From Escherichia coli (GTDB lineage: Bacteria; Pseudomonadota; Gammaproteobacteria; Enterobacterales; Enterobacteriaceae): 64,000 nucleotides of DNA. A program made the position numbers and the translations under genes. Below the pieces are notes generated by a model, which was given only the letters and a program-made list of their open reading frames with translations, did not search any database and was not told where the DNA came from. The DNA lies in NCBI RefSeq assembly GCF_009931435.1, contig NZ_CP043414.1. One strand, given 5' to 3'. Below, piece by piece: positions 408 through 55,918 of this stretch (position 1 is its first letter; each line of letters begins with the position of its first letter).

Positions 408-2687
408 ATGGATGACCAGTTAAAACAAAGTGCACTTGATTTCCATGAATTTCCAGTTCCAGGGAAAATCCAGGTTTCTCCAACCAAGCCTCTGGCAACG
501 CAGCGCGATCTGGCGCTGGCCTACTCACCAGGCGTTGCCGCACCTTGTCTTGAAATCGAAAAAGACCCGTTAAAAGCCTACAAATATACCGCTCGTGGTA
601 ACCTGGTGGCGGTGATCTCTAACGGTACGGCGGTGCTGGGGTTAGGCAACATTGGCGCGCTGGCAGGCAAACCGGTGATGGAAGGCAAGGGCGTTCTGTT
701 TAAGAAATTCGCCGGGATTGATGTATTTGACATTGAAGTTGATGAACTTGACCCGGACAAATTTATTGAAGTTGTCGCTGCGCTCGAACCGACCTTCGGC
801 GGCATCAACCTCGAAGACATTAAAGCGCCAGAATGTTTCTATATTGAACAGAAACTGCGCGAGCGGATGAATATTCCAGTATTCCACGACGATCAGCACG
901 GCACGGCAATTATCAGCACTGCAGCCATCCTCAACGGATTGCGCGTGGTGGAGAAAAACATCTCCGACGTGCGGATGGTGGTTTCCGGCGCGGGTGCAGC
1001 AGCAATTGCCTGTATGAACCTGCTGGTGGCGCTGGGGCTGCAAAAACATAACATCGTGGTTTGTGATTCAAAAGGCGTTATCTATCAGGGCCGTGAGCCA
1101 AATATGGCGGAAACCAAAGCCGCATATGCGGTGGTAGATGACGGCAAACGTACCCTCGATGATGTAATTGAAGGCGCGGATATTTTCCTGGGCTGTTCCG
1201 GCCCGAAAGTGCTGACCCAGGAAATGGTTAAGAAAATGGCTCGTGCGCCGATGATCCTGGCGCTTGCGAACCCGGAACCAGAAATTCTGCCGCCGCTGGC
1301 GAAAGAAGTGCGTCCGGATGCCATCATCTGTACCGGCCGTTCCGACTACCCGAACCAGGTTAATAACGTGCTTTGCTTCCCATTCATCTTCCGTGGCGCG
1401 TTGGACGTTGGTGCAACTGCCATCAACGAGGAAATGAAACTGGCGGCGGTACGCGCGATTGCAGAACTGGCCCATGCGGAACAGAGCGAAGTCGTTGCTT
1501 CGGCGTATGGCGATCAAGATCTGAGCTTCGGCCCGGAATACATCATTCCAAAACCGTTTGATCCGCGTTTGATCGTTAAGATCGCTCCTGCGGTCGCTAA
1601 AGCGGCGATGGAGTCGGGTGTGGCGACGCGTCCGATTGCTGATTTCGACGTCTACATCGACAAGCTGACTGAGTTCGTTTACAAAACCAACCTGTTTATG
1701 AAGCCGATTTTCTCCCAGGCCCGCAAAGCGCCGAAGCGCGTTGTTTTACCGGAAGGGGAAGAGGCACGCGTTCTGCATGCTACTCAGGAACTGGTGACTC
1801 TGGGACTGGCGAAACCGATCCTTATCGGTCGTCCGAACGTGATCGAAATGCGCATTCAAAAACTGGGCTTGCAGATCAAAGCGGGCGTTGATTTTGAGAT
1901 CGTCAATAACGAATCCGATCCGCGTTTTAAAGAATACTGGACCGAATACTTCCAGATCATGAAGCGCCGTGGTGTAACTCAGGAGCAGGCGCAGCGGGCA
2001 CTGATCAGTAACCCGACAGTGATCGGCGCGATCATGGTTCAGCGTGGCGAAGCCGATGCAATGATTTGCGGTACGGTGGGCGATTATCATGAACACTTCA
2101 GCGTGGTGAAAAATGTCTTTGGTTATCGCGATGGCGTTCACACCGCAGGCGCAATGAACGCGCTGCTATTGCCGAGTGGTAACACTTTTATTGCCGATAC
2201 CTACGTCAATGACGAGCCAGACGCAGAAGAGTTGGCGGAGATCACCTTGATGGCGGCAGAAACTGTTCGTCGTTTTGGTATTGAGCCGCGTGTGGCTCTG
2301 TTGTCACACTCCAACTTTGGTTCTTCTGACTGCCCGTCGTCGAGCAAAATGCGTCAAGCGCTGGAACTGGTCAGAGAGCGTGCGCCAGAACTGATGATTG
2401 ATGGTGAAATGCACGGCGATGCAGCGCTGGTGGAAGCGATTCGCAGCGATCGTATGCCGGACAGCCCTTTGAAAGGTTCCGCCAATATTCTGGTGATGCC
2501 GAACATGGAAGCTGCCCGTATTAGTTACAACTTACTGCGCGTTTCCAGCTCGGAAGGTGTGACTGTCGGTCCGGTGCTGATGGGTGTGGCGAAACCGGTT
2601 CACGTGTTAACACCAATCGCATCCGTACGTCGTATCGTCAACATGGTGGCGCTGGCCGTGGTTGAAGCGCAAACCCAACCGCTGTAA
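408..2687 (+). CDS. maeB: NADP-dependent malic enzyme with C-terminal phosphotransacetylase-like domain
   Basis: 759 aa ORF; malic enzyme N-terminal domain and PTA-like C-terminal domain recognisable in translation. Confidence 0.93.
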
Positions 2688-3326: not shown

Positions 3327-3806
3327 ATGAAACGAATTGCGTTTGTGGGTGTCGTCGGGGCAGGAAAAACAACGTTATTTAATGCGTTGCAGGGGAATTA
3401 TACCCTCGCCAGAAAAACACAGGCCGTGGAATTTAATGATAAGGGCGATATTGATACGCCGGGTGAATATTTTAGCCATCCCCGCTGGTATCACGCCTTA
3501 ATTACCACGCTACAGGATGTGGACATGCTGATTTATGTCCACGGCGCGAATGACCCGGAAAGCCGATTGCCTGCCGGGTTGCTGGATATTGGTGCCAGCA
3601 AACGGCAAATCGCCGTCATCAGTAAAACGGACATGCCGGATGCTGACGTCGCAGCAACGCGAAAGTTATTGCTTGAAACTGGTTTTGAAGAGCCGATTTT
3701 CGAGCTAAACAGCCACGACCCGCAAAGCGTGCAGCAACTGGTGAATTATCTGGCATCTCTCACCGAACAGGAGGAAGCAGGTGAAAAAACTCATCACAGC
3801 GAATGA
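3327..3806 (+). CDS. eutP: ethanolamine utilisation GTPase/acetate kinase-like protein EutP
   Basis: 159 aa; P-loop GVVGAGKTT near N-terminus; eut operon position. Confidence 0.88.
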   Translation: MKRIAFVGVVGAGKTTLFNALQGNYTLARKTQAVEFNDKGDIDTPGEYFSHPRWYHALITTLQDVDMLIYVHGANDPESRLPAGLLDIGASKRQIAVISKTDMPDADVAATRKLLLETGFEEPIFELNSHDPQSVQQLVNYLASLTEQEEAGEKTHHSE

Positions 3807-4482
3807 TATTCGTGAAGCACATGCGCGCGGCGAACAGGCAATGTCTGTGGTTCTGCGCGCCAGCATTATTACCCCGGAAGCCCGCGAAGTGGCGGACTTG
3901 CTGGGGTTTACCATCACCGAATGCACTGAATCGACGCCAGTAGCGGCATCTGTTCCCGTCAGCGTGCCTGCCGATAAAACTGAAAGCCAGCGTATCCGCG
4001 AAACCATCATCGCCCAGCTGCCGGAAGGCCAGTTTACCGAAAGCCTGGTCGCGCAGCTGATGGAAAAAGTGATGAAGGAAAAACAGTCGCTGGAGCAGGG
4101 GGCAATGCAGCCGAGTTTTAAATCGGTGACCGGCAAAGGCGGCATCAAAGTTATTGATGGCAGCAGCGTGAAGTTTGGTCGTTTCGATGGCGCGGAACCG
4201 CACTGCGTAGGCTTGACTGATCTCGTGACCGGAGACGACGGCAGCAGCATGGCCGCCGGTTTTATGCAGTGGGAGAACGCCTTCTTCCCGTGGACCCTGA
4301 ACTACGACGAAATCGACATGGTACTGGAAGGGGAGCTTCATGTTCGCCATGAAGGCGAAACCATGATCGCCAAAGCGGGCGACGTGATGTTTATCCCGAA
4401 AGGCTCCAGCATCGAATTTGGTACGACATCCAGCGTGAAATTCCTGTATGTCGCCTGGCCGGCTAACTGGCAATCCCTATGA
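3781..4482 (+). CDS. eutQ: ethanolamine utilisation cupin-domain protein EutQ
   Basis: 233 aa ORF overlapping the eutP 3' end by 26 nt; operon position. Confidence 0.85.
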   Translation: MKKLITANDIREAHARGEQAMSVVLRASIITPEAREVADLLGFTITECTESTPVAASVPVSVPADKTESQRIRETIIAQLPEGQFTESLVAQLMEKVMKEKQSLEQGAMQPSFKSVTGKGGIKVIDGSSVKFGRFDGAEPHCVGLTDLVTGDDGSSMAAGFMQWENAFFPWTLNYDEIDMVLEGELHVRHEGETMIAKAGDVMFIPKGSSIEFGTTSSVKFLYVAWPANWQSL

Positions 4483-5282
4483 AAGATTTCATCACCGAAG
4501 CATGGCTAAGAGCGAACCATACGCTCAGCGAAGGCGCAGAGATCCATCTCCCTGCGGACAGTCGCCTGACGCCCTCTGCCCGGGAGTTACTGGAAAGCCG
4601 CCATCTGCGCATCAAGTTTATTGACGAGCAGGGCCGCCTGTTTGTTGACGATGAACAGCAGCAGCTACAGCCCGTTCACGTGCTGACCAGTAGTGATGAA
4701 CATCCGCAGGCGTGCTGCGAACTGTGTCACCAGCCAGTGGCGAAAAAGCCGGACACGCTGACTCACCTGTCGGCGGAAAAAATGGTCGCCAAAAGCGATC
4801 CGCGCCTGGGTTTTCGCGCTGTTCTCGACAGCACCATTGCGCTGGTAGTGTGGCTGCAAATTGAACTGACAGAACCGTGGCAGCCGTGGCTGGCGGATAT
4901 CCGTTCGCGTCTTGGCAACATTATGCGTGCCGATGTGTTGGGCGAACCGCTGGGCTGCCAGGCGATTGTCGGGTTTTCTGACGAAGATCTGCATCGACTT
5001 TCTCACCAGCCACTACGTTATCTCGACCACGATCATCTGGTGCCGGAAGCCAGCCACGGACGTGATGCGGCGTTGCTGAATCTGCTACGCACCAAAGTGC
5101 GGGAAACCGAAACCGTAGCGGCGCAGGTGTTTATCACCCGCAGTTTTGAAGTATTACGCCCGGACATCTTACAGGCGCTGAACCGCCTTTCCAGCACGGT
5201 CTACGTGATGATGATTTTGAGCGTAACGAAGCAGCCGCTAACGGTGAAACAGATCCAACAACGACTGGGAGAGACGCAATGA
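4479..5282 (+). CDS. eutT: ethanolamine utilisation cob(I)alamin adenosyltransferase EutT
   Basis: 267 aa; 4-nt start/stop overlap with eutQ and eutD; operon position. Confidence 0.88.
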
Positions 5283-10460: not shown

Positions 10461-10676
<216 letters not shown>

Positions 10677-24177: not shown

Positions 24178-24234
24178 GCGCTTCTGATTCGATGATTAAA
24201 GGCCAGCCAGTAACACAACTGGCTGGCCTTTTTA

Positions 24235-25539
24235 TTACTTCTGCTTTAACGCCGCATACACCTGATCCACCACCCAACCATAAGTTGCAATCGGTAACTG
24301 ACCGCTTTCGAACATATTGGGATTTTTTTGTGGATCGGCAACTGGCGAATGTGGCTTGTTGCTTAACATCACAATCGCCATATGATTCACCGGATCGATA
24401 ACGGTCACCGTCCCGGTCCAGCCAGTGTGACCGTAGGTTTGCGGGCTTGCCAACGTGCCAAACGTCGGCGTCATGATGGCATTACCATTCACGCGCCAGC
24501 CGAGGCCAAAAGTGGCGTCTTCCTTTGAGCTGGTGGTGAACATCTTAACCGTTTCCGCACTGAACAGCGTCACATCACCATAGCCGCCGCCGTTCAGCAT
24601 CGTTTGCATTAACACCGCAATATCACCGGTATTGGAAAACAAACCTGCGTGCCCGGAAACGCCGCCCATCGAATAGAATGCTTTTTCATCGTGCACCTGA
24701 CCCCAGAGAGTGGAGGTGCGGATATTCGGGAAGTGAATCACGCCATCGCGGGTATTGCCGTTCAGTTCCGTGGCGGCAATTTGCTGTGGTTTAAAGCCTT
24801 TCAGCAGCGGATTAAACACCGTATGCGTCAGGCCGAGCGGGCGATAAATCGACTCTTCAACATAGCGGTCAAGCGGCTGACCGGTGACCGACTCGACGAT
24901 AAATCCAAGCAGCATATAATCGACATCGCTGTAGATATGCTTGCTGCCGGGCTGATACTCCAGCGGCGTGCGCTTGATCATCTCCAGCGTCTGGCCTTTA
25001 TCCTGGGAATATAACGCGCCCGCGACCGCTTTATTCGGATATTGCGGATCTGCCGGGAAACCGCCGCTGTGATGCAGCAGATCAGAAATCCGCAGCGTGT
25101 TTTTGCCTTTGATCGCATCGTTCGGGCTGTCGGCAAACCCTGGGATATATTTCGCAATCAGATCGTCAGGATGTAGTTTGCCTTCGCTCATCAGCTTTTG
25201 CAGGGCGAAGTTAGTGGCGTACATCTTGGTGTTTGAGGCCAGATCATACAGCGTCCCGGTGGTGGCTTTTAACGGCTGCGCCATTAACGCGCTGCCATCG
25301 TACTTTTTCGCCGCGCCCCAGGCTTTGCGATAAACAATCTGATTATCTTTTATAATCAGCAGGTTTACGCCGGGATAACCATCATCAACTTGCTGGCTAA
25401 TCCAGCGATCCATCTGATTAAGCCGTTCGACGTTAAACCCTGCTTTCTCTGGCGAACTTTCTGTCAGAACAGGGTATTTTGCGGCGCTGACGCTACAGCT
25501 GACAGCCAGCAGAGAAAAATAGAGCATTGTCCGTTTCAT
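24235..25539 (-). CDS. yfeW: penicillin-binding protein 4B-like beta-lactamase-fold protein
   Basis: 434 aa; signal peptide; class C beta-lactamase / PBP fold sequence. Confidence 0.85.
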   Translation of the reverse strand: MKRTMLYFSLLAVSCSVSAAKYPVLTESSPEKAGFNVERLNQMDRWISQQVDDGYPGVNLLIIKDNQIVYRKAWGAAKKYDGSALMAQPLKATTGTLYDLASNTKMYATNFALQKLMSEGKLHPDDLIAKYIPGFADSPNDAIKGKNTLRISDLLHHSGGFPADPQYPNKAVAGALYSQDKGQTLEMIKRTPLEYQPGSKHIYSDVDYMLLGFIVESVTGQPLDRYVEESIYRPLGLTHTVFNPLLKGFKPQQIAATELNGNTRDGVIHFPNIRTSTLWGQVHDEKAFYSMGGVSGHAGLFSNTGDIAVLMQTMLNGGGYGDVTLFSAETVKMFTTSSKEDATFGLGWRVNGNAIMTPTFGTLASPQTYGHTGWTGTVTVIDPVNHMAIVMLSNKPHSPVADPQKNPNMFESGQLPIATYGWVVDQVYAALKQK

Positions 25540-25541
25540 AA

Positions 25542-26966
<1,425 letters not shown>

Positions 26967-26969
26967 GGG

Positions 26970-27866
26970 TTATTCCTTGTCTAAAACCTGACGAATAAAG
27001 CCGCCGTGTTGATCCAGGCGTTTTTTTGCTTCTGCGGCATCGAGATTTTTCAGCACCATCACAATGGCCGTTTTACAGTTGCGCTCGCAAGCAATTAACG
27101 CCGCTTCCGCTTGTTCGGCGTTACATCCGGTGGCGTTTTTAACGATATTGACCTGGCGCACATGCAATTTTTCGTTGGTGGCGACCACATCGACCATCAG
27201 GTTGCCGAACACTTTGCCGGATTTAATCATCAGCCCGGTAGAGAGCATATTGAGCACCAGTTTCTGCGCTGTGCCTGCTTTCATTCGCGAAGAACCGGTA
27301 ACCACTTCGGCACCAACCACCGGAGTAATAGCAAACTCAGCGGTGGTTGAAACGGCGCTCCCCGGATTACAGGAAATGCCCACTGTGCGGCAACCGAGTT
27401 GGCGTGCGTATTCCAGCCCGGCAATCACATACGGTGTGCGACCGCTGGCAGCAATACCAACCACCACATCCTGTGCGGTTAAGCCGATATTTTTTAGATC
27501 GTTAACGCCACCTTCCCGGCTATCTTCTGCGCCTTCCACCGCGTGCTGAATGGCATATTCACCGCCAGCAATCAAACCAACCACCAGGCCCGGTTTGACG
27601 CCGTAGGTCGGCGGACATTCGCTGGCATCAAGAATACCCAGACGACCGGAAGTCCCCGCACCGATGTAAATCAGTCGACCGCCGCCGCTTACCTGGGCGT
27701 GGATAACATCGATCGCTGCGGCGATATCCGGCAGTACACGCTCAACGGCAAGTGGTACGGTTTTATCTTCATTGTTGATAATCCGGCACATTTCCAGCGT
27801 TGATACGCGGTCAATTTCAGCCGAAGCGGCATTCGAGCCTTCGGTAATCATCTTTTCAAGTTGCAT
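26970..27866 (-). CDS. murQ: N-acetylmuramic acid 6-phosphate etherase
   Basis: 298 aa SIS-domain protein directly upstream of murP. Confidence 0.9.
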
Positions 27867-40455: not shown

Positions 40456-41217
40456 TTACCGCCACATCGCGTGTTTATCGCGATAGCAATCGACCCACAT
40501 CGCCGTCGCGCCACAAACGGCAACGGGCATAATGAACAGATTAAGCAGCGGGATCATCGTAAACAGGCTGGTTAAAGCACCAAACTGCATATTGGTGATT
40601 TTGCGTGTGCGCAGGGCGGTGCGCATCTCTTTAAACGGCACTTTGTGGTTATCGAAGGGGTAATCGCAATACTGGATGGCTAACATCCAGGCACTAAACA
40701 GGAACCACAGTACCGGCGCGACGGTTTGCCCAATGCCAGGGATGAAGTAAAGAATTAGCAATACAATCGCCCGTGGCAGATACCAGGCAAATTTTTGCCA
40801 TTCGCGTTTCATGATTCGCGGCACATCTTTCATGATACCGAAAATTCCGGTATCTGGCGGTGTAGCGCCAGTCAGTCTTGCTTCCAGTTGTTCAGCCAAT
40901 AAGCCGTTGAACGGAGCAGCAATCCAGTTAGCAATCGTTGAGAAGAAATAGCCAAACACTAACAGCACAGAGATGACAGCCAGGGGCCACAACAGATAGC
41001 TCAGCCATTGTAACCAGTCCGGAACATAACTCATGAGAGTCGGGATCCAGACATCGAGTTGCGTAAAGAGCCACCAGAATGCGCCCCCCATCAACAAAAT
41101 ATTGACCAACAGCGGTAAAATAACAAAACGCCGAATCCCAGGTTGCGAGACGAGCTTCCAGCCTTGCGCAAAATAGTAAAAACCGCTGCGTGGGGCAGAT
41201 GTGAATGATGAAACCAT
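40456..41217 (-). CDS. cysZ: sulfate transporter CysZ
   Basis: 253 aa polytopic membrane protein. Confidence 0.9.
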
Positions 41218-41446
41218 AATCAGGATGAGCTCCTTTTGACCAATCCCAGGAAAATTCTGCGTATTTTACCGGGTAATTGCGCAATGGACAGTTAGGATAT
41301 GTTCGAAAAAACAGCAAAAAGCACGATTTCATCTATCTTTGTGCTGTGAAAGTTAATAGTGCACTTGCACTTGAGGTAATCGGCAAATACTCTTAGTGAG
41401 TAAATGTTTGCCGTGGTGGCAAGGTGTTAGAACAACAGAGAATATA

Positions 41447-42445
41447 ATGATGCAGGATTTGCGTCTGATATTAATCATTGTTGGCGCGATCGCCATAATC
41501 GCTTTACTGGTACATGGTTTCTGGACCAGCCGTAAAGAACGATCTTCTATGTTCCGCGATCGGCCATTAAAACGAATGAAGTCAAAACGTGACGACGATT
41601 CTTATGACGAGGATGTCGAAGATGATGAGGGCGTTGGTGAGGTTCGTGTTCACCGCGTGAATCATGCCCCGGCTAACGCCCAGGAGCATGAGGCTGCTCG
41701 TCCGTCGCCGCAACACCAGTACCAACCGCCTTATGCGTCTGCGCAGCCGCGTCAACCGGTCCAGCAGCCGCCTGAAGCGCAGGTACCGCCGCAACATGCT
41801 CCGCGTCCAACGCAGCCGGTGCAGCAACCCGTGCAGCAGCCTGCCTATCAGCCTCAGCCTGAACAGCCGTTGCAGCAGCCAGTTTCGCCACAGGTCGCGT
41901 CAGCGCCGCAGCCAGTGCATTCAGCACCGCAACCGGCACAACAGGCTTTCCAGCCTGCAGAACCTGTAGCGGCACCACAGCCTGAGCCTGTAGCGGAACC
42001 GGCTCCAGTTATGGATAAACCGAAGCGCAAAGAAGCGGTGATTATCATGAACGTCGCGGCGCATCACGGTAGCGAGTTAAACGGTGAACTGCTTCTTAAC
42101 AGCATTCAACAAGCGGGCTTCATTTTTGGCGATATGAACATTTACCATCGTCATCTTAGCCCGGATGGCAGCGGCCCGGCGTTATTCAGCCTGGCGAATA
42201 TGGTGAAACCGGGAACCTTCGATCCTGAAATGAAGGATTTCACTACTCCGGGTGTCACTATCTTTATGCAGGTACCGTCTTACGGTGACGAGCTGCAGAA
42301 CTTTAAGCTGATGCTGCAATCTGCGCAGCATATTGCCGATGAAGTGGGCGGTGTAGTGCTTGACGATCAGCGCCGTATGATGACTCCGCAGAAATTGCGC
42401 GAGTACCAGGACATCATCCGCGAAGTCAAAGACGCCAACGCCTGA
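41447..42445 (+). CDS. zipA: cell division protein ZipA
   Basis: 332 aa from ATG at 41447 ([26 protein letters not shown]...): N-terminal TM anchor, long P/Q-rich linker, C-terminal FtsZ-binding domain. Confidence 0.9.
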
Positions 42446-42506
42446 TACACTTAAGGCAAATTAACTCCTCTTCGAACCCCCGCTTGTCGGGGGTTTTTAG
42501 CATTGA

Positions 42507-44531
<2,025 letters not shown>

Positions 44532-45984: not shown

Positions 45985-46752
45985 TTAGAACTGATATTTT
46001 ATTGAATAAATAATGCCATCCTGGAGGAAGGCTTCACCCAGTTTATTATCTGCGTAGCGATATTGAATCCCTGCCGTAAAATGCGGTGTCGCATTCCACC
46101 AAAACGCTACTGCTCCGTTTATACCTTCTTTTCCGCCATTACCTGCTGCATATGTAGCGTCGCGGTCAAATTCGTATTCATTCCAGTTAGTCAGGCTGAA
46201 TTTTTCGCTACCAAGCGTGAAACTGTATCCGGCAACCCAGCCCAAAACATAGCCATTGTCACCGGTATAATAGGTTTGATCGGTGTAACGTTTCGCGAAG
46301 AATGGCTTAAACCAGTAACCATTTCCCGTAAAATTGTATCCAAGCCCGTAAAGGAATGTATCATCATAGAAGTTAACACGTTCAGGTGAACCGTAAGTCC
46401 CGTAAGCGTGAAGATAAAGATTCAGTCCTGTATCACCAAGATAAATGCGGTTGGTACTTTTAAAAGTATAACGTTGTTCACTGCCAGATTTTGAATGTCG
46501 GCCATTATAGAAGTTCTCCCAATCGAAGAACCCGTACATTTCTCCCCAACTAAAGTTAGCACCACCTTCTAATTCCAGATAGCCAAAATCATCTTTATGG
46601 GACTTATTACTGGTTTTCTCTGTCGTGCGGGATGTCCAGTCAAGATAATGCAGACCAATGTCAGCAAAGCCCCCTTTAAACTCGGCATAAGACATTTGCG
46701 GAAAAGCCATGGGAACCAGACCAAGGCTTAATGCAAGAAGCTGTTTTTTCAT
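45985..46752 (-). CDS. yfeN: Tsx-family outer membrane nucleoside channel-like protein YfeN
   Basis: ATG at 46752 (MKKQLLALSLGLVPMAFPQMSYA signal peptide), Tyr/Gly-rich beta-barrel sequence ending ...YQF. Confidence 0.85.
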   Translation of the reverse strand: MKKQLLALSLGLVPMAFPQMSYAEFKGGFADIGLHYLDWTSRTTEKTSNKSHKDDFGYLELEGGANFSWGEMYGFFDWENFYNGRHSKSGSEQRYTFKSTNRIYLGDTGLNLYLHAYGTYGSPERVNFYDDTFLYGLGYNFTGNGYWFKPFFAKRYTDQTYYTGDNGYVLGWVAGYSFTLGSEKFSLTNWNEYEFDRDATYAAGNGGKEGINGAVAFWWNATPHFTAGIQYRYADNKLGEAFLQDGIIYSIKYQF

Positions 46753-47005
46753 AGTATGTTCCACTTAAGTAATAAATTTAATGAATGTGATATGCTTACA
46801 TATTTATGCTGTAATTATTTGGCATGTCTATTTTATTAGATTTATGACAGCTCTAACCAATACATAATTATCACGTAATGATAGGGTGTCGATCTGAATG
46901 TCTTCAGGATTGATATCAAATTGCAATTGATATCCGTGGTAAAAAGTATTGGTAAATGTGATGAATTTCCGGTTATTTAAAGGGGGCTCAAAGTCGAAGG
47001 AGAAG

Positions 47006-48262
47006 ATGGTGAATCTAAAACTACAATTAAAAGTACTTTCATTTCTGCAATTCTTTTTGTGGGGAAGTTGGCTCAATACATTCGGTTCCTATATGTTTAT
47101 CACGCTGCGTTTTAAAGGCGAGGATATTGGTGCAGTCTATAGTACCTTGGGTATTGCAGCATTAATAACATCAACGTTATTTGGTATCGTGGCCGATAAA
47201 TGGATTAGTGCTAAATGGATATATGCCGCTTGTCATTTATTTGGCGCGATAACATTATTTGTCGCTGCATCGGTTACCACGCCTTCGGCAATGTTCATTG
47301 TCATTTTACTTAACTCTCTCGTGTATATGCCAACGCTCGGTTTGAGTAATACAATTTCCTATTACCGCATACAAACTGCGGGGATGGATATTGTGACAGA
47401 ATTTCCACCAATCCGTATTTGGGGCACGATTGGATTTATTGTCGCGATGTGGGCGGTGAGTTTGGCAGGTTTTGAATTAAGTCATATGCAATTGTATATC
47501 GGCGCGGCAGCTTCGTTAGGCTTGAGCCTGTTCACGTTGACATTACCGACTGTACCAGTGGCGAAATCTAACCAGGCGCAAGGAATGATAGACGTGCTCG
47601 GACTGCGTGCATTTGCACTGTTTAAGAACAGCAAAATGGCGATTTTCTTTATCTTTGCCATGCTGCTCGGGGCAGAACTACAAATTACCGGGATGTTTGG
47701 TAATACATTTCTCCACAGTTTTGAGAGTGTTCCAGAGTTTGCCAATAGCGTTGTTGTAACTCATGCTTCTATTTTGTTATCAATTTCTCAGATATCCGAA
47801 GTCTGCTTCATTCTTGCCATTCCCTTTTTCCTGAAAAAATACGGTATCAAAAATGTCATGCTGATGAGCATGGTGGCCTGGACGCTGCGTTTTGGTTTAT
47901 TCGCTTATGGCGATCCTTCATTCGGCGGTACCATTCTGTTAATTCTTTCGATGATTGTTTATGGCTGTGCTTTTGACTTCTTCAATATATCTGGCTCGGT
48001 ATTTGTTGAACAAGAAGTTGATCCATCGATTCGTAACAGCGCTCAGGGCGTTTTCCTGATGATGGCCAATGGTTTTGGTTGTATTCTGGGCGGTTTTATC
48101 AGTGGTAAAGTCGTCGATTATTTAACAACGGATGGCAATCCACAGTGGTCAACCATTTGGCTGGTATTTGCCGGATATTCACTGGTTCTGGCTCTCGCAT
48201 TTATGGTGTTGTTTAAATATAAACACAACAGTAACCCGACAACATCCGGTCATTTCGCCTGA
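47006..48262 (+). CDS. nucleoside:H+ symporter (NHS) family MFS transporter, NupG-like paralog additional to xapB
   Basis: 418 aa from ATG at 47006 with RBS aaggag at 46997-47002; MVNLKLQLKVLSFLQFFLWGSW... and conserved MIVYGCAFDFFNISGSVFVEQEV block shared with NupG/XapB; AT-rich by eye. Confidence 0.8.
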   Translation: MVNLKLQLKVLSFLQFFLWGSWLNTFGSYMFITLRFKGEDIGAVYSTLGIAALITSTLFGIVADKWISAKWIYAACHLFGAITLFVAASVTTPSAMFIVILLNSLVYMPTLGLSNTISYYRIQTAGMDIVTEFPPIRIWGTIGFIVAMWAVSLAGFELSHMQLYIGAAASLGLSLFTLTLPTVPVAKSNQAQGMIDVLGLRAFALFKNSKMAIFFIFAMLLGAELQITGMFGNTFLHSFESVPEFANSVVVTHASILLSISQISEVCFILAIPFFLKKYGIKNVMLMSMVAWTLRFGLFAYGDPSFGGTILLILSMIVYGCAFDFFNISGSVFVEQEVDPSIRNSAQGVFLMMANGFGCILGGFISGKVVDYLTTDGNPQWSTIWLVFAGYSLVLALAFMVLFKYKHNSNPTTSGHFA

Positions 48263-48316
48263 TACGGAATTTATCAAAATTAATAATGTTTTATAGGATT
48301 AGCAAAGGAGGATATT

Positions 48317-49246
48317 ATGGCAAATCAATTGTATAACCAGTGTCGGGTTTATTGTGCACCCTGGCGATTAGATGCTTTGAATTTAAATGATATCATTGAT
48401 CAATGGATTGACGAGGGGCTGTTGCCGCCCCTGATCCATACTTTTCTTCCATATCGTGATGATGCCGGTGCCTCCAGTGAAGAAGAGATTTTTGTTAATG
48501 ATGTCGCGAATATGGACAATAGTGTTGGGGTTATCGGTTATTTCGATGGTGGAACCTATGATTCCGGTTGTGCATGGGAAGTAGGCTATGCATGGGCTTT
48601 AGGGATGCCTGTTCACTTGGTAACGACAGACTTTCTTATATGGGCAGCGGGGAATTCTTCAGAGTTTTACCCTATAAGTAAGCTGATGAATTATGTGGCA
48701 AAAGTGGTTTCGGTGTCAGATTCCGATGCTAGCATCAGCAACTATCGTGAACAAACCAACGATATCATCAAGCGTGCGTTGCAAATTCTTCAACAAAATT
48801 TAATCGCCGACTTCGGCACGACGATTACTCCCGCTGTACCGATTACGCCATTTCCGATTGAGTATGACTATTATCTTGATCCTAACTTTATGTATACCGA
48901 ACCCTCTCGGGGCTTACTGGAGAAAATCAAAGATGCGATCATTAGTGCAGGTAAGACTTTCATCGTTGGCGACAATATGAATGATATTGCGACTGATATT
49001 GATAACTTAAGAAAATCCAGACAGGCCATCTTTTATTCCGATACCTTTGAGCCGAATGTCGACACCGGTATTATGAATGGTATTGCCTATGCATTAGGAC
49101 AGCAATCGATAGTTTATTGTAGCAAGCAACAAAAGTATCAATCTGCGCTCGCGACAGATTATTTGAATTTAATGATTACCTGGTCGTCAACGGTGGCGCA
49201 TTCATTTGCGGAGCTTGAAACATTGATTGGTAACACAGAAAAATAA
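48317..49246 (+). CDS. hypothetical protein with two tandem nucleoside 2-deoxyribosyltransferase (NDT/Rcl)-like domains
   Basis: 309 aa; domain 1 has GYFDGGTYDSGCAWEVGYAWALGMPV (NDT/Rcl-like ExGYAxALGxP core with the Glu), domain 2 has DTGIMNGIAYALGQQ (same core, Asn in place of Glu); RBS aaggagg upstream; AT-rich by eye. Confidence 0.6.
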   Translation: MANQLYNQCRVYCAPWRLDALNLNDIIDQWIDEGLLPPLIHTFLPYRDDAGASSEEEIFVNDVANMDNSVGVIGYFDGGTYDSGCAWEVGYAWALGMPVHLVTTDFLIWAAGNSSEFYPISKLMNYVAKVVSVSDSDASISNYREQTNDIIKRALQILQQNLIADFGTTITPAVPITPFPIEYDYYLDPNFMYTEPSRGLLEKIKDAIISAGKTFIVGDNMNDIATDIDNLRKSRQAIFYSDTFEPNVDTGIMNGIAYALGQQSIVYCSKQQKYQSALATDYLNLMITWSSTVAHSFAELETLIGNTEK

Positions 49247-49258
49247 TAGTTAATTTTA

Positions 49259-52631: not shown

Positions 52632-52707
52632 TTGGTGGGTCGTGCAGGATTCGAACCTGCGACCAATTGATTAAAAGTCAACTGCTCTACCAACTGAGCT
52701 AACGACC
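52632..52707 (-). tRNA. lysV: tRNA-Lys (anticodon UUU)
   Basis: Reverse complement gives 76-nt tRNA GGGTCGTTAGCTCAGTTGGTAGAGCAGTTGACTTTTAATCAATTGGTCGCAGGTTCGAATCCTGCACGACCCACCA. Confidence 0.95.
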
Positions 52708-52711
52708 CGAA

Positions 52712-52787
52712 GTGGTGGGTGATGACGGGATCGAACCGCCGACCCCCTCCTTGTAAGGGAGGTGCTCTCCCAGCTGAGCTAATCACC
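52712..52787 (-). tRNA. valY: tRNA-Val (anticodon UAC)
   Basis: Reverse complement gives GGGTGATTAGCTCAGCTGGGAGAGCACCTCCCTTACAAGGAGGGGGTCGGCGGTTCGATCCCGTCATCACCCACCA. Confidence 0.95.
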
Positions 52788-52833
52788 CACTTCGGTACTT
52801 CACATTGTTACAAGAAATCTAGCTGGCGAGAAA

Positions 52834-52909
52834 GTGGTGGGTGATGACGGGATCGAACCGCCGACCCCCTCCTTGTAAGGGAGGTGCTCTCCCAGCTGAG
52901 CTAATCACC
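52834..52909 (-). tRNA. valX: tRNA-Val (anticodon UAC)
   Basis: Identical 76-nt tRNA-Val copy on the minus strand. Confidence 0.95.
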
Positions 52910-52952
52910 CACTTCTCAATTTCTTGCTACACGGCGGAGACTACATAAGTAG

Positions 52953-53028
52953 TTGGTGGGTGATGACGGGATCGAACCGCCGACCCCCTCCTTGTAAGGG
53001 AGGTGCTCTCCCAGCTGAGCTAATCACC
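52953..53028 (-). tRNA. valU: tRNA-Val (anticodon UAC)
   Basis: Identical 76-nt tRNA-Val copy on the minus strand; first gene of the operon. Confidence 0.95.
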
Positions 53029-53287
53029 CCCGCTGTGTGGAGTCGCATTATAGGGAGAGTTCAAAATGAGTCAACGCATTTTCTAAAGAAATTGTTCGTT
53101 CGTCGTAAATTTAAGCAAGATGATCGCAAAACAGACCGTGTTGCGCAATTTGTCAACGAAAACAATAATGCGTAAGGTTGCAACCCGAACTACATTGAGG
53201 AATCAGGCGGGAGTGATAGAATATCGCCCACTCAATTTTTCCAGGATTTGCCGGTTGTCGGCATCTTTCTAAACGTAAGGCCATTTC

Positions 53288-55727: not shown

Positions 55728-55803
<76 letters not shown>

Positions 55804-55842
55804 AATTTTGCACCCAGCAAATTTGGTACGTAAACGACTCGT

Positions 55843-55918
<76 letters not shown>

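Follow-up and report, generated by a model that had tools for sequence, protein, structure and literature searches.

The window, by which is meant the whole 64,000-nt stretch of Escherichia coli DNA that was analysed, contains zipA as an ORF running on the plus strand from the ATG at 41447 to the stop codon at 42445 (332 aa plus stop), flanked by cysZ and ligA (Table 1). A mechanical ORF call starts earlier, at GTG 41396, but ATG 41447 was the annotated start in all RefSeq records examined. The RefSeq CDS, annotated zipA, spans 999 nt identical to the window and encodes protein WP_001305210.1; the zipA gene of strain R32_14_1F also showed 100% identity to these 999 nt, and the ZipA protein of strain Nissle is the same as that of the window (WP_001305210.1). 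The Pfam ZipA_C family (PF04354) matched aa 198-321 with E = 3.2e-46 (156.8 bits against a cut-off of 23), and the chains of the solved ZipA C-terminal domain (1F46, 1F47 and 1F7W) matched aa 189-332 with E = 1e-88 to 6e-93. The gene is divergent from cysZ and upstream of ligA, a context that was the same in every E. coli genome examined, and it was present in 5,425 of 5,426 complete E. coli genomes. The C-terminal domain of the window's ZipA is identical to that of K-12, as is the N-terminal domain; K-12 ZipA binds the FtsZ C-terminal peptide and is required for division (PMC8669495, PMC6904479). The C-terminal domain, a single N-terminal transmembrane helix, a charged region followed by a P/Q linker, and the genomic context were all found. 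The feature is ZipA itself, with all testable defining features present, and the annotation of the window is hardly affected: this is a normal zipA allele.

Table 1. Features of zipA and its linker in the window (positions are those of the window)
Feature	Position	Strand	Evidence or remark
zipA coding sequence, 332 aa plus stop	41447..42445	+	ORF, Pfam, RefSeq identity
N-terminal membrane anchor, aa 1-28, hydrophobic	41447..41530	+	Sequence; AlphaFold2 helix 2-28
Charged region, aa 29-85, basic then acidic	41531..41701	+	Sequence; limits from PMC6904479
P/Q-rich linker, aa 86-189	41702..42013	+	Composition; domain limits as PMC6904479
C-terminal FtsZ-binding domain, aa 189-332	42011..42442	+	Pfam ZipA_C; structures 1F46, 1F47, 1F7W
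QPVQQP motif copy 1, aa 103-108	41753..41770	+	26-nt repeat family
Two overlapping QPVQQP motifs, aa 123-132, copy-number hot spot	41813..41842	+	Allele comparison
QPLQQP motif copy 4, aa 140-145	41864..41881	+	26-nt repeat family
12 nt GTGCAGCAACCC (one PVQQ unit)	41819..41830	+	Absent from the K-12-type 328-aa allele
8-nt direct repeat GTGCAGCA	41819-41826 and 41831-41838	+	Bounds the 12-nt indel
Direct repeat pair CGCAGCCG, 69 nt apart	41742-41749 and 41811-41818	+	Breakpoints of the 309-aa allele
Direct repeat pair CAGCAGCC, 111 nt apart	41762-41769 and 41873-41880	+	Breakpoints of the 295-aa allele (EM10-18-28)
Direct repeat pair CAGCCG, 51 nt apart	41813-41818 and 41864-41869	+	In a longer stretch with 15/20 matches
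Perfect 10-nt direct repeat CGCCGCAACA, 81 nt apart	41706-41715 and 41787-41796	+	Fits the 355-aa allele
Spurious ORF, 101 aa, frame +1 of zipA	41664..41969	+	Stops, SNPs
Spurious antisense ORF, 101 aa	41673..41978	-	Stops, SNPs
Spurious antisense ORF, 81 aa	41582..41827	-	Stops, SNPs
Spurious antisense ORF, 64 aa	41854..42048	-	Stops, SNPs

The hydrophobic stretch of the membrane anchor covers aa 5-25, and the anchor was invariant across 20 Enterobacteriaceae sequences. The solved ZipA structures cover aa 189-332 only, except for 9iue, which was deposited with the full-length sequence. An AlphaFold2 model gave a helix at residues 2-28, no helix or strand at 29-194 (pLDDT 35-50) and an alpha/beta domain at 195-331; it was computed from a shallow 20-sequence alignment and is poor overall (mean pLDDT 49.5), and so lends weak support to disorder. 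Residues 86-185 of K-12 ZipA are called the P/Q domain and have been described as a flexible, probably unstructured tether leading from the anchor to the FtsZ-binding domain (PMC6904479). Biophysical evidence of disorder or extension of this tether was reported by Ohashi et al. (2002), as cited in that paper, which argues for its part that the P/Q domain is more compact than a free chain. In the window's protein the linker has a low-complexity composition and no predicted secondary structure, and its length and sequence vary between alleles and species while the flanking domains are fixed. The P/Q region is the tether between the ZipA membrane anchor and the FtsZ-binding domain, and is most likely intrinsically disordered. 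A preliminary description of the window had placed the linker at 41660-42010, which is about right apart from a start lying 42 nt ahead of the literature limit of the P/Q domain, on the upstream side.

The same description had called the linker repetitive and rich in Pro and Gln, and the composition bears this out. Residues 86-189 comprise 29.8% Pro, 25% Gln and 14% Ala, the G+C content is 65% compared with 51% in the rest of zipA, and CAG and CCG account for 34 of the 104 codons. The motif QP(V/L)QQP occurs four times (aa 103, 123, 127 and 140), against a mean of 0.014 in amino-acid shuffles for QP[VL]QQP, a motif picked with the data already in view. Repeated peptide 4-mers numbered 12 (4.7 +/- 2.3 in amino-acid shuffles) and repeated 5-mers numbered five (0.9 +/- 1.1). 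At the DNA level the repeats form an imperfect four-copy family of 26 nt with 65-73% identity, and the linker also holds several exact direct repeats of 8-10 nt. These exact repeats were not enriched (17 compared with 12 +/- 5 in codon-shuffled linkers) and therefore follow largely from the extreme codon composition. Tandem Repeats Finder (TRF) detected no array between 41400 and 42500, even at score 30, and a regular tandem array was dropped as a description of the linker. There are two adjacent 12-nt units that match at 10 of 12 positions, together with dispersed imperfect copies, rather than a head-to-tail array of near-identical units; the copy number of units does differ between strains (one or two for PVQQ, one to three for QPVQQP and zero to three for a 13-aa unit). 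The microhomologies of the linker are mostly due to composition, laid over traces of old duplications of peptide units, and the linker is an indel hot spot as a property of its low complexity, not of a dedicated repeat array.

Comparison with the K-12-derived gene (987 nt, 328 aa) agreed with the lengths of 332 aa and about 328 aa that had been given for the two proteins in the preliminary description, and with its proposal that repeat number underlies length polymorphism. The alleles were aligned and proved not to be identical: relative to K-12 the window carries a 4-aa insertion, which is one 12-nt PVQQ unit lying between GTGCAGCA repeats, and three further substitutions in the linker (R120/H, T122/A and S152/P, window/K-12). 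At the indel site the window reads CAG CCG GTG CAG CAA CCC GTG CAG CAG CCT and K-12 reads CAG CCG GTG CAG CAG CCT, with a single 12-nt gap in the alignment. When a 70-nt probe spanning the indel was searched against the 5,427 complete E. coli records with zipA, about 2,345 (about 43%) matched ungapped and carry the 332-aa form, and about 3,050 (about 56%) matched with the 12-nt gap and carry the 328-aa form, counts that are approximate to about 40 records. Carriers of the longer form include Nissle, O25b:H4-ST131, O6:K2:H1, O157:H7, O55:H7, O145 and SMS-3-5, and those of the shorter form include K-12 derivatives and O111; the split presumably runs along phylogroups, with the longer form in B2, E and F and the shorter in A and B1. 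The 332-aa form is no peculiarity of a strain but one of the two major E. coli alleles, and the zipA allele of the window is common to more than a thousand finished genomes. In practice, about 43% of E. coli strains have a ZipA whose numbering, beyond residue 122, is offset by +4 from that of K-12. According to our own simple flexible-chain estimate, the 4-aa difference changes the r.m.s. extension of the tether by about 2%, and it is therefore unlikely to matter functionally.

Length variation in E. coli extends well beyond these two forms, with in-frame alleles ranging overall from 295 to 375 aa. Among the complete genomes, a 309-aa allele produced by a 69-nt deletion at the repeat CGCAGCCG was found in 22 genomes, with a junction that was 100% identical in all of them; its carriers include O25:H4 CU568-3, SaT040 and ZH063. 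A 308-aa allele (72- or 60-nt deletion) was found in three genomes, and a 315-aa allele (51- or 39-nt deletion at the repeat CAGCCG or TGCAGCAGCC) in nine records, on at least three haplotype backgrounds and with two different crossover points. Single genomes carried a 325-aa allele (N47; 21-nt deletion at CCGCA), a 321-aa allele (PSJ-23; 21-nt deletion at GCAGCC) and a 295-aa allele (EM10-18-28 only; 111-nt deletion at CAGCAGCC), and MS14386 carried a 341-aa allele with a 39-nt tandem duplication of the same interval that is lost in the 39-nt deletion. Carriers were counted with single 60-nt junction queries at E <= 1e-14. Junction BLAST at E <= 1e-5 was unfit for counting since normal alleles match as two joined pieces, and a concatenated query of three junctions gave long low-identity gapped alignments to normal alleles, the top rows of which listed 315-aa carriers. 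In junction BLAST against complete E. coli genomes the 111-nt deletion was a singleton. About 31 records had less than 80% coverage of the linker; deletions of 69, 72/60 and 111 nt account for 22, three and one of them, leaving a few others.

A large protein collection contained further alleles labelled E. coli, of 301, 303, 304, 305, 310, 314, 349, 351, 354, 355 and 375 aa. The 349-aa allele is a duplication of exactly the 17 aa that are missing from the 315-aa allele, and the 355-aa allele has a tandem duplication of the 27 aa that lie between the perfect 10-nt repeats CGCCGCAACA (41706 and 41787). A 13-aa unit is present three times in the 354-aa allele, and the 315-, 328-, 341- and 354-aa alleles form a series with zero, one, two and three copies of it. 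In the same collection 827 contigs carried one 309-aa sequence, and 371 carried one of 308 aa. Some of the rare protein alleles that come from metagenomes or drafts could be assembly artefacts, as two of them (P0013 and P0101) clearly are. All E. coli ZipA indels fall in the linker or in the adjacent charged region, and all alleles that could be checked at the DNA level are in frame. The proposed length polymorphism was thus found both as alleles of 295-375 aa, with pairs of deletions and duplications, and as a range of one to three QPVQQP units across Escherichia.

Among viable isolates the linker measures from about 66 to about 146 residues, which bounds the tether length tolerated by an essential divisome anchor. 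With a persistence length set at 0.5 nm, the flexible-chain estimate used above would give the extreme alleles r.m.s. extensions between roughly 5.0 and 7.4 nm. The natural alleles of 295-375 aa set indirect bounds on the range of lengths that ZipA tolerates, a range not known to have been mapped by experiment, and are usable for testing models of tether length. Nothing specific on natural zipA length polymorphism was found in the limited literature searched, which is no proof of novelty. The P/Q tether is textbook knowledge and the allele of the window was already in RefSeq, so that nothing here is new in kind, and the natural series of zipA lengths is an ordinary population-level consequence of low-complexity coding DNA.

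All nine deletions that were verified at the DNA level break within exact direct repeats of 5-10 nt. The mean length of the breakpoint repeat was 7.4 nt, compared with 1.75 +/- 0.68 for a null of deletions of matching size placed at random in the linker; in 20,000 simulations 7.4 was never reached, although the nine deletions that enter this comparison did not all arise independently. The deletions of 12, 69, 111 and 39 nt used the longest repeat that their spacing offers, the 39-nt deletion in two of the three carriers examined. The CAGCCG pair (41813 and 41864) provides the breakpoints of both the 315-aa deletions and the reciprocal 349-aa duplications. From this breakpoint anatomy we infer that slipped-strand mispairing or short-homology recombination has left its signature in the repeat-bounded deletions and reciprocal duplications. 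A few codons (CAG, CCG, CCT, CAA and GCG) make up the linker, which also carries relics of QP(V/L)QQP duplication, so that its DNA is full of short direct repeats. Replication slippage or RecA-independent recombination at short homologies between these repeats may then remove or duplicate the intervening sequence. As zipA is essential, only in-frame products would be expected to survive, and many of them would be tolerated if, as we presume, the tether works by its flexibility and approximate length and not by its exact sequence. We consider it highly probable, taking all parts together, that the feature is the P/Q tether of ZipA in a 332-aa allele with two overlapping QPVQQP units, that its length varies by slippage between short repeats, that the K-12 form is derived and that the overlapping ORFs are compositional. 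For users of such data, the in-frame indels that recur in the linker can mislead alignments and variant callers, and the region is error-prone in assemblies.

The polarity of the 12-nt difference was judged from four Escherichia relatives, which came from a degenerate-pattern scan with one genome per species; the scan did not recover E. fergusonii or the main representatives of E. marmotae and E. ruysiae. At the site of the indel E. albertii has QPVQQP-QPVPQS (ZipA of 331 aa), SCPM-O-B-8794 has QPVQQP twice (320 aa), Escherichia sp. E1V33 has QPVQQP three times (326 aa) and MOD1-EC7003 has a single QPGQQP (321 aa), so that the hot spot holds 1, about 1.7, 2 or 3 QPVQQP units across Escherichia lineages. 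A search of complete E. coli genomes with the divergent linker of SCPM-O-B-8794 found no such allele, the best identity being below 95%, and despite its E. coli label this strain is probably a member of a cryptic Escherichia lineage. The search also brought up rare E. coli deletion alleles by chance.

In the relatives with multiple units (E. albertii, E1V33 and SCPM-O-B-8794) CAA closes the first unit and CAG closes the last, which is also the arrangement in the 332-aa allele of E. coli. The single unit of K-12 ends in CAG and that of MOD1-EC7003 in CAA. Most likely, as judged from this codon pattern, two or more units were present in the ancestor, the older form in E. coli is the one of 332 aa and the 328-aa form of K-12 is derived by a 12-nt deletion. 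The opposite polarity, in which 328 aa is ancestral and the 332-aa form arose recently when a K-12-like single unit was duplicated in tandem, is unlikely. In its favour, the extra 12 nt adjoin a near-identical copy (10/12 positions), duplication by slippage is mechanistically as feasible as deletion, real tandem duplications at the hot-spot site are seen in MS14386, P0002 and P0011, and a single unit is present in one relative, MOD1-EC7003. A fresh duplication would be expected to give identical copies, however, and all 332-aa alleles examined show two synonymous differences between their two units (CAA/CAG, and CCC/CCT versus CCG). The sharing of the CAA-first, CAG-last pattern with relatives that have two or three units also speaks against it, as does the presence of the 332-aa form in several deep lineages (Nissle, ST131, O157:H7 and SMS-3-5). 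The CAA ending of the single unit of MOD1-EC7003, which differs from the ending in K-12, suggests that this unit arose by an independent deletion.

Between species the variation in ZipA length is again located in the linker. In 24 Enterobacteriaceae species the total ranged from 317 to 350 aa, made up of an N-terminal part of 71-73 aa, a C-terminal part of 139-140 aa and a linker of 104-138 aa, and the variance of the linker (62) accounts for that of total ZipA length (59). Linker length might be under lineage-specific selection that tunes the spacing between Z-ring and membrane, or its dynamics, instead of being near-neutral. Such a view could draw on the high frequency at which each of the two length classes is kept, on the range of 104-138 aa within which the linker stays between species, suggesting bounds, and on the 309-aa allele, which is clonal in its 22 complete genomes. 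Two carriers of this allele belong to ST131, SaT040 being fimH22 and ZH063 fimH35 (PMC4933990). Yet the 4-aa difference corresponds to only about 2% of r.m.s. extension in our own polymer estimate, shared descent within phylogroups explains the frequency of the two major alleles, and the same deletions have appeared, as rare singletons, on more than one background, which is what a mutation-driven polymorphism would lead one to expect. We regard selection of this kind as improbable, and the stronger proposition, that the length of the ZipA tether is a tunable trait on which selection acts lineage by lineage, as more doubtful still. If it were true, the 309-aa allele, which is 23 aa shorter and fixed in the ST131 fimH22/H35 sublineage, might alter Z-ring-to-membrane spacing, division timing or the response to inhibitors of division that depend on ZipA, for instance Kil of phage lambda, and the natural series of 295-375 aa would amount to an existing scan of linker length in an essential division protein.

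That errors of sequencing or assembly, or the choice of start codon, produced the length difference or the repeat structure is very improbable. GC-rich repeats of low complexity do attract errors, the complete genome of FCI23 has garbled, frameshifted sequence exactly at the hot spot and the database proteins P0013 and P0101 are plain artefacts; against this, the 332- and 328-aa forms were found in about 2,345 and 3,050 independent finished genomes, respectively, with the same start and stop in all, and all variants examined were in frame. For the two major alleles an artefact is thereby already refuted.

The long overlapping ORFs that cover the linker on both strands, listed here at >= 60 aa, had been called spurious in the preliminary description, and codon shuffles and SNP synonymy agree with that. 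The linker has 13 stop codons in six frames, compared with a mean of 23 in 312-nt tiles of the window (5th percentile), and codon-shuffled linkers have 11.0 +/- 2.2 alternative-frame stops against the 13 observed; the alternative-frame ORFs are long because the codons of the linker rarely create stops in any frame. Of the 12 linker SNP variants among five alleles, eight were synonymous when read as zipA. Read as the alternative ORFs, three and two of the 12 were synonymous for the two 101-aa ORFs, three for the 81-aa ORF and seven for the 64-aa ORF, the last of which is attributed to third codon positions shared with zipA. That one of them should be a real overlapping gene, as the presence of two 101-aa ORFs plus 81- and 64-aa ones and the low density of stops in the linker might invite one to think, is scarcely credible, given that shuffled linkers have as few stops, that the SNPs are mostly synonymous in the zipA frame and not in those of the 101-, 101- and 81-aa ORFs, that natural deletions remove large parts of the overlapping ORFs, and that a promoter/terminator scan of 41150-42600 found nothing inside the linker, including any promoter-like site. 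The overlapping ORFs are by-products of composition and should not be annotated.

The nearest known system is the P/Q domain of K-12 ZipA, with which the window shares the gene, the locus (cysZ / zipA-ligA) and the domain order; the window's copy differs by the additional PVQQ unit (12 nt) and the three linker substitutions. Within the same division machinery, the disordered C-terminal linker of FtsZ, the nearest analogue in behaviour, is likewise a low-complexity spacer that joins a folded domain to a binding or anchoring element and varies in length between species with conserved flanks, as ZipA does in the 24 species compared, but it belongs to another protein and has another composition. 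Its function reportedly depends on disorder and a range of lengths and not on sequence, as Gardner et al. in 2013 and Buske and Levin in 2013 are said to have found. Like VNTR or contingency loci of surface proteins, zipA shows variation between strains in the copy number of a peptide unit, the 13-aa unit; unlike them, its common alleles are without a long near-identical array (TRF negative) and without frameshift on/off switching, and ZipA is cytoplasmic. The nearest parallel for the mutational pattern is offered by direct-repeat-mediated deletions, for which the lacI deletion hot spots that Albertini et al. reportedly described in 1982 are the classical case of RecA-independent events at short direct repeats. 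In zipA, too, the breakpoints lie in exact repeats of 5-10 nt, often the longest available, and one repeat pair has yielded reciprocal deletion and duplication products; the difference from lacI is that only in-frame events are seen, because zipA is essential.

The 309-aa form of ZipA, which arises by a deletion of 23 aa in the linker, was clonal and was found in 22 complete E. coli genomes (records H389-H410 among the matches in the ecoli_genomes collection). The carriers included SaT040 (ST131, fimH22), ZH063 (ST131, fimH35) and CU568-3 (O25:H4), and a full-length linker was present in two O25b:H4-ST131 genomes, those of strains 2017_APHA and 4993. The 309-aa allele could be used as a lineage marker. 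The full-length 328-aa ZipA sequence has been deposited for 18 chains in PDB entry 9iue.

The zipA of strain FCI23, annotated as a frameshifted pseudogene, carried a scrambled CAGCCG-GGCGCC-CGTGCAG (-5 nt net) located precisely at the QPVQQP hot spot, the site of variable copy number in the linker. As zipA is essential, the most likely cause of this frameshift is that the low-complexity site was misassembled or wrongly basecalled. Searching the ecoli_genomes collection with zipA also gave matches in two plasmid-labelled records and two copies in one genome, and one of the 5,426 genomes gave no match; these cases probably represent mis-assigned replicons or assembly problems. Among the database proteins, P0013 (a 348-aa variant) possessed an odd hydrophobic insertion, RISLFFFVVLFSPPS, downstream of the membrane anchor, and P0101 (298 aa, 82 member sequences) was an N-terminally truncated gene call starting at Met35. 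Both look artefactual and are not to be counted among the linker length alleles.

A 320-aa ZipA was encoded by SCPM-O-B-8794, a genome labelled as E. coli. Its divergent linker was similar to that of Escherichia sp. E1V33; a search of the 5,426 complete E. coli genomes revealed no counterpart, as the highest identity over the linker was <95 %. Strain SCPM-O-B-8794 is probably a member of a cryptic Escherichia lineage.

Features located in the window and zipA loci of other genomes
Feature	Sequence	Position	Strand	Details
naRNA4 / CssrE (nucleoid-associated noncoding RNA 4)	window	10515-10596	+	Rfam, 73 bits (gathering score 59.5)
G+C-rich hairpin	window	42475-42498	+	CCCCCG-CTTGT-CGGGGG, then TTTTT; between zipA stop and ligA start (42516)
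tRNA cluster Lys(UUU)-Val(UAC) x3	window	52633-53029	-	
tRNA cluster Ala(GGC) x2	window	55728-55918	+	
zipA, annotated frameshifted pseudogene	NZ_CM172721.1 (L006)	508-1501		strain FCI23
zipA, 320-aa ZipA	NZ_JAATUR010000016.1 (L013)	3690-4652	-	'Escherichia coli strain SCPM-O-B-8794'

Downstream of zipA, the hairpin and the T-tract that follows it have the appearance of an attenuator or intrinsic terminator. This hairpin was not called by the consensus scan, and the fold z-score of the 70-nt zipA-ligA intergenic piece was only -1.4.

Positions 21627-62444 of the window were collinear with R32_14_1F, the annotated strain that has an identical zipA. The identity was 98.3-98.9 %, and the alignment was interrupted by an indel of ~150 nt near 24200 (about 24200-24229). 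The region around zipA is therefore more diverged than zipA itself, which was 100 % identical in this strain. The yfeH-xapA interval was placed at about 45990-49250 of the window by collinearity with positions 24539-27800 of locus L008, from the related strain. In the annotation of that strain, the interval encodes an outer-membrane protein of the OmpK family, a nucleoside permease and a nucleoside 2-deoxyribosyltransferase. The gltX gene was flanked by the Lys(UUU)-Val(UAC) and Ala(GGC) tRNA clusters, the same arrangement as that annotated in R32_14_1F.
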